Shown: piece by piece, positions 12,691 through 63,090 of the stretch | How the letters are laid out: each line of letters opens with the position of its first letter | Position numbering within the stretch: position 1 is the stretch's first letter | Assembly (NCBI GenBank): GCA_963771885.1 | Contig: CAVYVF010000002.1 | Span: 416,001 to 480,000 of the forward strand | Length of the DNA: 64,000 nucleotides | Direction: 5' to 3' | From: Candidatus Bathyarchaeota archaeon | Lineage (GTDB): Archaea; Thermoproteota; Bathyarchaeia; TCS64 | Notes under the pieces: generated by a model | Databases searched by the model: none | Told to the model about the DNA's origin: nothing | What the model saw: the letters and a program-made list of their open reading frames with translations, nothing else | Program-made: the position numbers and the translations under genes

Positions 12691-12807
12691 TGGTCCCGCC
12701 TCCGGGATTTGAACCTGGAACCACTCGGTGTCTGCTCAAGGCCTGATTGCCTTCGCCCCGCGGGGCGGAAGCTACAGCCGAATGCTCTACCATTGAGCTA
12801 AGGCGGG
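12691..12807 (-). tRNA. tRNA-Tyr(GTA) with a 42-nt intron at 37/38 (12730-12771)
   Basis: Reverse complement CCCGCCTTAGCTCAATGGTAGAGCATTCGGCTGTAG^intron^ACCGAGTGGTTCCAGGTTCAAATCCCGGAGGCGGGACCA. C1-G72 pair as in archaeal tRNA-Tyr; CTGT/GCAG central helix with AGC and ACA bulges. Confidence 0.92.
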
Positions 12808-19826: not shown

Positions 19827-20216
19827 CTACTTTACGATTGCCTTGAGCTTCTCGGCGATCTCGGCGACGAGCTTTTCCGAGTCACCCGTCTCCTCGATGG
19901 CGGCGGCCGCGCTGCCCACCGTGAGTCCGAGAGCCTCGCCGATGCGCTGCTTCTCGGGAACGTAGACGTACGCTGCCTTCCTCTCATCGCAGAGGAGTGG
20001 GAGATGTGCAACCACCTCAGGGGGTGAGACGTCCTCGGCTATGAGGACGAGTTTCGCTTTGCCCCTCTCGATCGTCTTGGTCGTCTCGTTCGTACCCTTC
20101 CGGATCTTACCCGTCTCGCGGGCGACCTTCAGAGCCTCGTAGGCGGCCTCGACTACTTCCTTGGGGACTTCGAACTTTACGTAGAATGGTTTCTTCGAAG
20201 GATCGGACACAGTCAT
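19827..20216 (-). CDS. rpl7ae: 50S ribosomal protein L7Ae
   Basis: [27 protein letters not shown]. Confidence 0.96.
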
Positions 20217-29309: not shown

Positions 29310-29385
29310 GCGGCCGTGGCTTAGCGGATAGAGCATGGGCCTTCGGAGCCTATGGTCGAGAGTTCGAATCTCTCCGGCCGCGCCA
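29310..29385 (+). tRNA. tRNA-Arg(TCG), CCA encoded
   Basis: GCGGCCG-TGGCTTAGCGGATAGAGCA-TGGGC-CTTCGGA-GCCTA-TGGTC-GAGAGTTCGAATCTCTC-CGGCCGC-GCCA. Confidence 0.95.
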
Positions 29386-42432: not shown

Positions 42433-43029
42433 ACGTCGTTCTGGGAGGAGTGGGAGAAGCGGAGGAAGCGCGGCACGCCGTTCTTCTTCCCTGACCTGGA
42501 GAGGATGGTCGATGAGATGGAGAAGGAAATGTCCGACTTCTTCAAGGAAATTGAGGGGGAGATACCTGATGACCTATCGACGGAGCGCAAGCTACCCGAT
42601 GGTTCAGTGAAGAAGGAGTATGGTCCCTTCGTTTACGGTTACTCCGTCAAGGTGGGCTCCGACGGGAAGCCCGTTGTACGCGAGTTTGGCAATATGAAGC
42701 CGGGCACCTCCATCGGGGAGGACAAGAAGAAGCCCTTAAACCTCCAGGAGGCGAGGGAGCCACTCGTCGACGTTATTCAGGAGCAGGAGCAAGTAAAGGT
42801 CATTGCGGAGCTACCCGGCGTAGAAAAGGAGGACATACAGCTCTACGCAACGGAGAAGACGCTCACACTCGACGTGACGAACCCCGACCACCGTTACCAT
42901 AAGGAGCTCGAGCTGCCCTTCGAGGTAGACGAGGACTCGGCGACGAGCACTTACAGGAATGGTGTACTCGAAACAGTGATGAAGAGGAAGCGGGCTCGCG
43001 AAGGTGGACGCTCAATAAAGATACAGTGA
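42433..43029 (+). CDS. hsp20: Archaeal small heat-shock protein Hsp20
   Basis: GPFVYGYS, REFGN, EPLVDV, ELPGVEK, YRNGVLE. In-frame extension SFWEEWEKR begins at ACG 42433 after GGTGA. Confidence 0.92.
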   Translation, partial: TSFWEEWEKRRKRGTPFFFPDLERMVDEMEKEMSDFFKEIEGEIPDDLSTERKLPDGSVKKEYGPFVYGYSVKVGSDGKPVVREFGNMKPGTSIGEDKKKPLNLQEAREPLVDVIQEQEQVKVIAELPGVEKEDIQLYATEKTLTLDVTNPDHRYHKELELPFEVDEDSATSTYRNGVLETVMKRKRAREGGRSIKIQ

Positions 43030-43261
43030 CAATAGCGCCACAGGTTAATTACATATTTTGTGAGGTTCACTTCGAGAAGCGGTGGGGGAATAGTTTTCCA
43101 CTTTGACGAGAGGTGTTCCTGTACATTTACACGAGACTATTGTGCGTGTAACTTTCCTGTGTCAACACGCAATATGATACCAACACTATTTGGTAGTAAT
43201 AGAGGAATTATATGCGAGCATCTTGGGAACCTATTTATCCTGTGGAGCATCCCTGTTTGTC

Positions 43262-43317
43262 GCCAATGATGTGAAGGCATTAGTGCGATCCGTGAGCGAT
43301 CAGAGTTACACTGAGGC
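43262..43317 (+). ncRNA. C/D-box guide sRNA (candidate)
   Basis: GCC-A-ATGATGT(C)-GAAGGCATTAGT-GCGA(D')-TCC-GTGAGCGA(C')-TCAGAGTTACA-CTGA(D)-GGC with a terminal GCC/GGC stem, TATTTAT about 25 nt upstream and a T run downstream. Confidence 0.72.
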
Positions 43318-43480: not shown

Positions 43481-43933
43481 CTACGATGCGAGTTTTGGTG
43501 AGCTGAACCATAGCCCGGAAACCTGCGCTTGACCACTCGTGTTCACGGTGAAGACTACCCTGACGGTCACGCCTGAGGGCTCGTTTGAGTAATCCGCAGT
43601 ATAGTAGGCAATGATGTACTCGCCGGAGCGCTCCGCTTTAGTGAATGTCTTGCCCTCGTAGTTGCCGACCTTGGCGTGGAGCGTGTCCTGTATTTCATTG
43701 AACTGCGCCTCCGTATAGGCGGCTTTCATAGCCGTGTCCATGTCTCTCGTGAAGCTCGCGAGGTCTTCTGACTCGATAGAAGCCAGGATGTTCTCCGCGG
43801 CTGGGTCAGCGTAGATGCGCACAGACATCTCGTCAACTCGAGTGGACGCATCCATGTAGTACCAGACGCCCGCCGCGACGACAATAATTCCTGCTATAAG
43901 CAGGATTGCTATGTTTCGCCCGCTTAGTCCCAT
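43481..43933 (-). CDS. DUF3887-like membrane-anchored protein
   Basis: N-terminal TM helix; C-terminal VRVVF...VSGLWFSSPKL. Confidence 0.65.
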   Translation of the reverse strand: MGLSGRNIAILLIAGIIVVAAGVWYYMDASTRVDEMSVRIYADPAAENILASIESEDLASFTRDMDTAMKAAYTEAQFNEIQDTLHAKVGNYEGKTFTKAERSGEYIIAYYTADYSNEPSGVTVRVVFTVNTSGQAQVSGLWFSSPKLAS

Positions 43934-57719: not shown

Positions 57720-57804
57720 TGGCGCCGGGGATGGGATTTGAACCCATGTGAGCAAGCTCACGGACTTAGCAGGCCCGCTCCCTACCAGGCTAGGAGACCC
57801 CAGC
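57720..57804 (-). tRNA. tRNA-Ser(GCT), CCA encoded
   Basis: Reverse complement GCTGGGGTCTCCTAGCCTGGTAGGGAG-CGGGC-CTGCTAA-GTCCG, long variable arm, ATGGGTTCAAATCCCAT-CCCCGGC-GCCA. Confidence 0.95.
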
Positions 57805-59377: not shown

Positions 59378-59632
59378 CTACTGCAATATTTGACTAATAT
59401 ATTTAAGCCTGAACCCGGATCCGCTGTTTTTGTCTCTGGAAACGAGGATTAGGCGATGTTTTTCACTACGTTTCCTGAAACATGGTTTTCGTCGTCCCGA
59501 TTGTATATGAGGGGTTGACCATACTTCTCCACATTTTCCTCCAACGCCGTCTCCAGGTTCTTTTTTACATGCCTTAGGCTACGCGCACCCATTTTGTAAG
59601 ATTTATATGCGGAGGGGGGTGTGGCTATGGAC

Positions 59633-59718
59633 AGAGGGGAGCTGGGTTAAGGCCCGGCTGAGAGGACGGTAATCGTCGACCCTAGGAACCTGATCCGGGT
59701 AATGCCGGCGTAGGGAGG
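59633..59718 (+). promoter_or_regulatory. TPP riboswitch
   Basis: GGGG...GCTGAGA...GACCC...GAACCTGATCCGGGTAATGCCGGCGTAGGGA, the THI-box consensus; TTTATAT box about 25 nt upstream. Confidence 0.9.
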
Positions 59719-59769
59719 TGCGCGTTATCGTCAACCTGCCAAGCGGTTGACGCCTGCATCCCCTCTAGG

Positions 59770-62428: not shown

Positions 62429-62475
62429 CAAGGAGTTAGGTAAGTTTTATTAGCCCGCCCAAGCCCATACGAGGC

Positions 62476-62560
62476 GAAGGGGAGCTGGGCGAAAGCCCGG
62501 CTGAGAGGACGAAAGTCGTCGACCCTAGGAACCTGATCCGGGTAATACCGGCGAAGGGAT
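62476..62560 (+). promoter_or_regulatory. TPP riboswitch
   Basis: GGGGAGCTGGGCGAAAGCCCGGCTGAGAGGACGAAAGTCGTCGACCCTAGGAACCTGATCCGGGTAATACCGGCGAAGGGA, ending a few nt before the thiT ATG. Confidence 0.92.
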
Positions 62561-62565
62561 GTGTC

Positions 62566-63090
62566 ATGAGCGGTAACGGTACAAGGACGAATACCAGGGA
62601 ACTGGCAGAGATATCCGTAACCGTGGCACTATCCGTTGTCCTAAACTACATAAAGATCTACCAGCTCCCGTGGGGTGGCTCCATCACCCTAGGAAGCATG
62701 GTACCGATCATGCTGCTCGCCTACAGGCGCGGGCCGAAAGTCGGGATCATGGCTGGGATAGTCTTCGGCCTGGTCCAGATGGCTCTGGAGGGGTACATCT
62801 ACTACCCTGTCCAGATCATCCTCGACTACCCGCTTGCCTTCGCGTGTCTGGGACTCGCGGGCCTATTCAAGAAGCAGCCCCTTATCGGCGTCGTGGTCGC
62901 GTTGACCGGCCGATTCCTCTCACACTTCATTAGTGGTGTCGTATTCTTCGCAGAGTATGCCCCACCTGATTTAGGACCGTATGTTTACAGCGCGATATAC
63001 AATGGCAGCTACATACTCGGGGAGATGGTGATCAGCGGCATCATCATCTACCTGTTATGGAAACGGGCGCCACAGTTGTTTAATGTTTAG
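62566..63090 (+). CDS. thiT: Energy-coupled thiamine transporter ThiT (ECF S component)
   Basis: LPWGGSIT, QIILDYPLAF, RFLSHFISGVVFF, YSAIYNGSY. Confidence 0.9.
   Translation: MSGNGTRTNTRELAEISVTVALSVVLNYIKIYQLPWGGSITLGSMVPIMLLAYRRGPKVGIMAGIVFGLVQMALEGYIYYPVQIILDYPLAFACLGLAGLFKKQPLIGVVVALTGRFLSHFISGVVFFAEYAPPDLGPYVYSAIYNGSYILGEMVISGIIIYLLWKRAPQLFNV

Follow-up and report, generated by a model that had tools for sequence, protein, structure and literature searches.

A putative dual-guide box C/D sRNA of Bathyarchaeia with predicted targets at two adenosines in and near helix 69 of 23S rRNA

The window analysed here is a stretch of 64,000 nucleotides from a Candidatus Bathyarchaeota archaeon, and an intergenic sRNA gene of 56 nt lies on its plus strand at positions 43262-43317. 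The gene is closed by a terminal stem (GCC at 43262-64, GGC at 43315-17) and contains, all on the plus strand, a C box ATGATGT (43266-72), a D' guide region (43273..43284) with the guide AAGGCATT at 43274-81, a non-consensus D' box GCGA (43285-88), a C' box GTGAGCG (43292-98), a D guide region (43299..43310) with the guide TCAGAGTTAC at 43300-09, and a D box CTGA (43311-14). These boxes and the stem are where a preliminary description of this DNA had placed them. The terminal C and D boxes form a canonical kink-turn of established geometry (G.A, A.G, U.U and G-C pairs) with a 3-bp stem and a 3-nt bulge. The D'-C' loop is 3 nt, and the internal boxes are consistent with a kink-loop, being non-consensus but compensated, with the C' box making up for the GCGA D' box. 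Two guide regions of 12 nt each and a total of 56 nt agree with the dimensions of archaeal C/D sRNAs (two regions of approximately 10–12 nt, 50–60 nt in all). The minimum-energy fold of the naked RNA was no better than those of shuffled sequences (z = 0.19), which is expected for a protein-stabilised kink-turn, though it is not supportive.

The upstream neighbour is an Hsp20 gene (42505-43029, plus strand) whose stop codon lies 232 nt before the sRNA, and downstream is a convergent DUF3887 gene (43481-43933, minus strand). An hsp20 gene was also found upstream in 18/26 loci at the order level, at variable distance and with some loci too short to tell, and the DUF3887 gene was downstream in 0 of 26. 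A putative promoter element at 43225..43238 (plus strand) consists of purine-rich GGGAA, probably BRE-like, followed by a TATA-like TATTTAT (43232-38). Five T residues at 43321-25 (plus strand) form a possible terminator in this genome only. Both the TATA-like box and the T-tract had been described previously and both are present, but they fared differently in relatives: at least six A/T residues of eight were found at -32..-25 in 26/27 order-level loci, against 3/27 in a control window, whilst TTTT occurred within 20 nt downstream in just 4/26, so that the T-tract is not a feature of the family. According to the available part of Breuer (2021) an own TATA element is reported for only ~20% of archaeal C/D genes, making such a 'stand-alone' gene a less common but known arrangement. 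A sigma-70 promoter scan was discarded as unsuited to archaea. Elsewhere in the window are three tRNA genes, at 12694-12807 (minus strand; Tyr, with an intron), 29310-29382 (plus strand) and 57723-57804 (minus strand), and two TPP riboswitch aptamers at 59625-59734 and 62468-62577 (plus strand), 2.8 kb apart and both scoring higher than the Rfam gathering score. Riboswitches of the TPP class are uncommon in archaea.

The genome has a single 23S rRNA match (G000:C23:483034-486049), and both target words lie inside it, 25 nt apart, each occurring once in the rRNAs. The D guide TCAGAGTTAC forms 10 bp with 23S nucleotides 2015-2024 in helix 69 (-15.2 kcal/mol), its best site in rRNA by about 4 kcal/mol, and its +5 base T43306 faces A2018 (E. 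coli A1913, yeast A2256). The D' guide AAGGCATT forms 8 bp with nucleotides 2042-2049 (-10.9 kcal/mol), and its +5 base T43280 faces A2043 (the E. coli A1938 equivalent by offset, yeast A2281). The previously proposed complementarity of the D guide to H69 and of the D' guide to H70/71 is thus borne out in the 23S rRNA of the organism itself. Both guides make a Watson-Crick pair at +5 with the cognate 23S; the D' duplex is short, at 8 bp where the accessible text of Dennis et al. (2015, PMC4644070) quotes 10–12 nt as typical, and the three bases adjoining D' give a mismatch, a pair and a mismatch against 23S. At 23S nucleotide 2753 the D' guide has a site of lower energy, which was rejected because its pairing is 6 bp long and excludes the +5 base. 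Shuffled guide pairs reached 10 + 8 bp within 100 nt in rRNA in 3 of 200,000 trials (1.5e-5). Taken alone the D' match is weak, being equalled by 12.5% of shuffles, whilst for the D match, of moderate strength, the figure is 0.5%. The genome encodes fibrillarin, Nop5 and L7Ae, their families scoring over the Pfam cut-offs; the best L7Ae match is in the window at 19869-20147 (minus strand), 23 kb from the sRNA.

Assignment of the two sites rests on published numbering. With H69 of E. coli at 1906-1924 the first site is A1913, and yeast A2256 corresponds to E. coli A1913, according to the available portions of the sources. A distant BLAST search with E. coli 23S gave no match, and the A1938 label therefore rests on the +25 offset from A1913. 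In the accessible part of a table of conserved sites, yeast Am2256 is listed with snR63 and human U46, Am2281 with snR13 and U15, and Gm2288 with snR75; the Am2256 and Am2281 sites stand 25 nt apart in yeast, human and Dictyostelium, as they do in this 23S. The earlier assignments agree with these data: the second A of the H69 word is A1913, or yeast Am2256 (snR63), by the H69 numbering and the register of Giardia GlsR7, and the second site is yeast Am2281 (snR13) by the 25-nt spacing and the register of SNORD15. With both targets in its own 23S, the organism does appear to have one archaeal double guide for two sites served by separate snoRNAs in eukaryotes.

Among 40 relatives 26 gave a BLAST match to the gene at E < 1e-8, all of them within the 32 genomes of the same order. 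These matches begin and end at the ends of the sRNA and the flanks diverge, conservation being limited to the 56-nt sRNA and to a stretch 25-35 nt before it. The three terminal-stem pairs are invariant in 23/23 aligned homologues, and counts of structure pairs on these 23 close homologues were nearly uninformative (one pair with a two-sided change). The homolog search in Bathyarchaeia that had been proposed was carried out with a covariance model, which located the gene in 92/151 genomes of the class (91 with E < 1e-4, and one with 1.2e-4 after visual inspection; 101 matched at E <= 0.01); the class was inferred to be Bathyarchaeia from the titles of GTDB matches. Of the 92 homologues 88 were inspected and 86 parsed, and two representative 23S sequences served to assign targets, in a region that hardly varies. 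A1913 is predicted for 86/86, parsing having been keyed on that H69 guide. The D' guide aims at A1938 in 70/88, with guide and register kept, at G1945 in 8/88 (all in family f9) and at G1950 in two (f12); in six it has no target of at least 8 bp. The D' column of the 86 parsed homologues reads TTGA in 40, GCGA in 22, CTGA in 7 and ATGA in 4, among others. Its first base pairs with base 6 of C' in 82/86, through several pair types, and GC in D' is accompanied by GC in C' in 20 of the 22 GCGA cases; the three positions that separate guide and D' are free to vary.

An exact two-guide pattern matched 91 stretches over GTDB, 80 of which were listed. Among these 80, 75 are titled Bathyarchaeota or Bathyarchaeia, and 78 have the anatomy of the family, the other two being chance matches; no Asgard-titled record was among the 80 of 91 matches listed for this guide order. 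Family members were also seen in assemblies titled Patescibacteria and Desulfaltia (L097, L106), where the copies are nearly or fully identical to Bathyarchaeia copies and the contigs are probably mis-binned.

The guide pair was then sought in 251 genomes of the phylum, which we take to be Thermoproteota from the GTDB placement of class Bathyarchaeia; the genomes are kin, not independent, and counts were made without a tree. A strict pattern of H69 guide plus box was present in 65/251, with two control matches. The pair in the present order was found in 41/251 (30 from the class, 11 from two families outside it), after two of 43 pattern matches were left out for lack of a C' box. In a swapped order, with the H69 guide at D', the second guide at D and both registers fixed by the pattern, it was found in 50/251 (3 from the class, 47 from 11 families outside it). 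Reversed-pattern controls gave 0 for both orders. No genome appears in both lists, so that 91/251 carry the pair on one RNA. Parsed examples are predicted to target A1913 and A1938 with 8-11 Watson-Crick pairs (two rows read by eye), and other families combine the H69 guide with a guide for G1945 (yeast Gm2288). Within the class the swapped order was seen in 11/151 genomes, two of which look like chance, and in 4/8 genomes of f9, where the first gene has switched to G1945, a second gene of swapped order still covers A1938. A looser phylum pattern, used only to choose loci, matched 312/401 genomes with many control matches. A metagenome scan for the swapped order with a eukaryote-type H69 loop returned five matches, none with a C box in place, and these were judged to be chance.

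Some variants were observed alongside these surveys. A swapped-order homologue with a long internal spacer (L238, G055:C63:4860-5010) has its H69 guide one base nearer D', which predicts C1914, not A1913. Introns of 757-784 nt lie between both target sites, just after helix 69, in the 23S of G087, G025, G034, G123 and G056 (L240, L241, L256, L257 and L258, respectively); the two introns tested encode LAGLIDADG endonucleases. As G025 has both the intron and the two-guide sRNA, its guides would straddle the splice site. Inserts of 26-31 nt near the same place were seen in the 23S of three other genomes.

Of seven candidates from a box-and-stem scan of the genome, the one that combines a TATA element, a stem and two rRNA targets is the present sRNA. 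It also heads 781 box-pattern candidates with a score of 35.7, where the reversed genome gave at most 29.8, in a ranking that favours it since the scoring matrices were trained on its own homologues. A first genome scan gave a double-guide count of 3, not above the 0-3 of shuffled-rRNA controls, and by itself proves nothing; a loose scan without internal boxes gave noise. It is suggested that this is the only rRNA guide of the genome, for an assembly 92% complete and scans that would miss degenerate guides. The second-ranked candidate, outside the window at G000:C2:358195-358260 on the minus strand (L289), is a separate conserved C/D sRNA with perfect boxes, a 6-bp stem and matches in 30/40 relatives. 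A 12-bp duplex between its D guide and the tRNA-Leu(CAA) anticodon arm would place the mark on the wobble C, and guides for the wobble position of tRNA-Leu have been described in Pyrococcus (Breuer 2021, available part). A third candidate (G000:C2:411520, minus strand) had weak partial matches in 3/5 relatives and was dropped. The tRNA-Trp gene, outside the window at G000:C23:78395-78527, has an intron of about 55 nt with several box-like words.

None of the 12 RNA runs listed contained half of the sequence words of the gene. Three RNA-labelled runs gave five contigs, some with related copies that continue into promoter or flanking DNA and the others missing the gene; a run of raw reads gave none. 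Lacking discrete ends, the contigs speak neither for nor against expression, and they do not point to a habitat. The literature search brought up no methylation map of an organism that has this RNA.

Taken together, the box anatomy, the guide-target pairing, the encoded core proteins and the conservation of boxes, guides and promoter make it probable that the gene specifies a separately promoted dual-guide archaeal box C/D sRNA that 2'-O-methylates both adenosines on pre-23S rRNA. Following the established archaeal mechanism, the RNA would be transcribed from its own TATA element, L7Ae would bind at the C/D kink-turn and the C'/D' kink-loop, and Nop5 and fibrillarin would be recruited. The particle would base-pair with pre-23S that is still unfolded, over the loop of helix 69 and the H70/H71 junction. 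In each guide the fifth base upstream of the box would face the adenosine that receives the 2'-O-methyl group, the A1913 equivalent in the case of D and the A1938 equivalent in that of D'. A1913 is the residue that flips into h44 at bridge B2a, so that one of both sites is a bridge residue. The two sites probably need to be held together, because the pair is kept on one RNA in both orders across the phylum. The family is of interest as one guide pair carried by a single RNA, in 91/251 genomes, at two nucleotides that are methylated in yeast and humans. That it is the only convincing rRNA guide found by the genome scans suggests that few sites are retained longer than these.

It is less likely, but to be taken seriously, that only the D guide methylates, at A1913, and that the D' duplex anchors the particle, chaperones folding of H70/H71 or marks a neighbouring nucleotide owing to the non-consensus GCGA. 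The 8-bp D' duplex with its mismatch near D' would fit such a role, as would the 18/88 class homologues whose D' guide is another one, weaker or unparsed; conserved guide-target pairings without predicted methylation are described for Pyrobaculum in the accessible part of the literature. A non-consensus D' box can move the mark by one nucleotide in yeast, where snR13 marks two adjacent adenosines in this way via an unusual D' box. Against this, the distance from guide to D' is three bases in 78/80 listed GTDB matches, whatever the D' sequence, and the same guide stands in the same register at a canonical CTGA D box in the swapped-order genes and SNORD15. The base before D' varies (G, A, T or C), so that a shift across the family is unsupported.

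Methylation of both 23S sites by the two guides also has to be set against readings in which rRNA plays a lesser part or none. That the RNA is real but acts mainly on tRNA or mRNA, with secondary rRNA matches, is very improbable: the 8-nt complement of the D' guide does occur 49 times in the genome, but the 10-nt complement of the D guide is found in the whole 2.46 Mb only in 23S, apart from the opposite strand of the sRNA gene itself. Neither guide has a match of at least 8 bp among 36 tRNAs predicted by ARAGORN, and where D' guides of relatives have changed they move to the neighbouring G1945 or G1950 of 23S (10/88). Equally improbable is the absence of any functional gene, the sequence then being a chance box pattern, a scrap of 23S antisense, part of a short ORF or the hsp20 3' UTR. 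The guides do run collinear with antisense 23S, separated by 18 nt in the sRNA and by 17 in rRNA, but the spacer between them is made up of the D'/C' boxes and not of rRNA antisense, and other lineages have the two guides in swapped order. The sRNA is overlapped by two short mechanical ORFs, and hsp20 lies upstream in most order-level loci; conservation nevertheless ends at the stem with diverging flanks, the D' and C' boxes covary, and the gene has its own conserved TATA element. A search of Rfam with the window and 20 related loci, which included the sR series, GlsR7, SNORD15, SNORD45 and SNORD46, assigned the sRNA to no family at gathering score, a result that the absence of a gene would also produce.

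Among eukaryotic snoRNAs, SNORD46, yeast snR63 and Giardia GlsR7 are directed at the same nucleotide as the D guide. GlsR7, called a predicted SNORD46 homologue in the available part of PMC6461891, is the best Rfam match (16.3 bits, E = 0.32; gathering score 75), and its consensus D guide aligns base for base with that of the sRNA, in the same register to the D box. Unlike the present dual guide these three are single-site guides, and homology to them is not established because the likeness consists of the boxes and a guide fixed by its target. The D' guide has the same target nucleotide as SNORD15 and yeast snR13 (Rfam clan CL00045), a site common to Arabidopsis, human and yeast (Hoeppner and Poole 2012, accessible part). 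The consensus guide and D box of SNORD15 match a swapped-order relative over 15 nt in the same register (19.6 bits); this match is below gathering score, and SNORD15 and snR13 are longer RNAs. Plant U15 also guides the Gm2288 equivalent. The Rfam alignments held no similarity to SNORD46 or SNORD15 beyond boxes and guide.

It is conceivable, although we think it unlikely, that the A1913 + A1938 double guide was one ancient sRNA of the phylum ancestor, its halves circularly permuted, which gave rise to SNORD46/snR63 and SNORD15/snR13 after a split, with the G1945 partner as a forerunner of snR75 and of the second plant U15 site. Convergence can occur between guides that are short and constrained by an invariant target, and descent is therefore retained as a possibility only. 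Were it true, a rare archaeal guide family could be traced to named eukaryotic snoRNAs, where the survey of Hoeppner and Poole (2012) placed none firmly, its available part reporting no firm archaeal-eukaryote snoRNA homology and hardly any archaeal sRNA that corresponds to a eukaryotic snoRNA site. The family thus offers a concrete case for weighing descent against convergence, and for the value of coupling two sites.

Closer parallels exist within the archaea. Ignicoccus hospitalis sR91 and Sulfolobus acidocaldarius sR113 have the same D guide core in the same register (Dennis et al. 2015, PMC4644070). Their predicted target is 23S A2179 of an alignment in which E. coli A1912 is 2178; the sR113 cell, printed 'A21779', was read as A2179 because its sequence gives that site. 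Their D' guides differ from that described here, sR91 aiming at G2211 (the G1945 equivalent) and sR113 having no predicted target. S. acidocaldarius sR125 and I. hospitalis sR109 also have the guide AAGGCATT, its register unchanged and its predicted target A2204, 25 nt after A2179, but in them it is the D guide and its partner is directed at G2172, not A2179. All four are supported by RNA-seq, and none of the matching rows of supplementary file 1 of that study (PMC4644070) combines A2179 and A2204 on one RNA. In the available part of the Pyrobaculum supplement (Lui 2018) the second guide word occurs in the sR40 rows, and the H69 guide word was absent from the guide column among the matches listed. 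The sR41-type RNAs of Haloferax and Pyrococcus (PMC2584109) are also H69-directed C/D guides, in a genome with few predicted guides, but use a different guide to aim at a different nucleotide, G1909. The A1913 + A1938 pairing was not found in print, nor any Bathyarchaeia C/D sRNA, in a search of the openly accessible literature and of the supplements of Dennis et al. (2015) and Lui (2018). As far as the accessible parts of the sources go, archaeal dual guides often have both targets within 100 nt of each other (about 45% in Pyrobaculum), H68-H71 is a described methylation hotspot (Dennis et al. 2015, PMC4644070; Breuer 2021), a single species can have guides rearranged between the D and D' positions (Dennis et al. 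2015, PMC4644070), and archaeal surveys, that of Dennis et al. included, find hotspots conserved and exact sites mostly not. The sRNA is an archaeal dual-guide C/D sRNA of ordinary type with a textbook mechanism. Both of its sites are already predicted for crenarchaeal sRNAs, on separate RNAs, and what is added here is the retention of the pair on one RNA across the phylum, in two orders.
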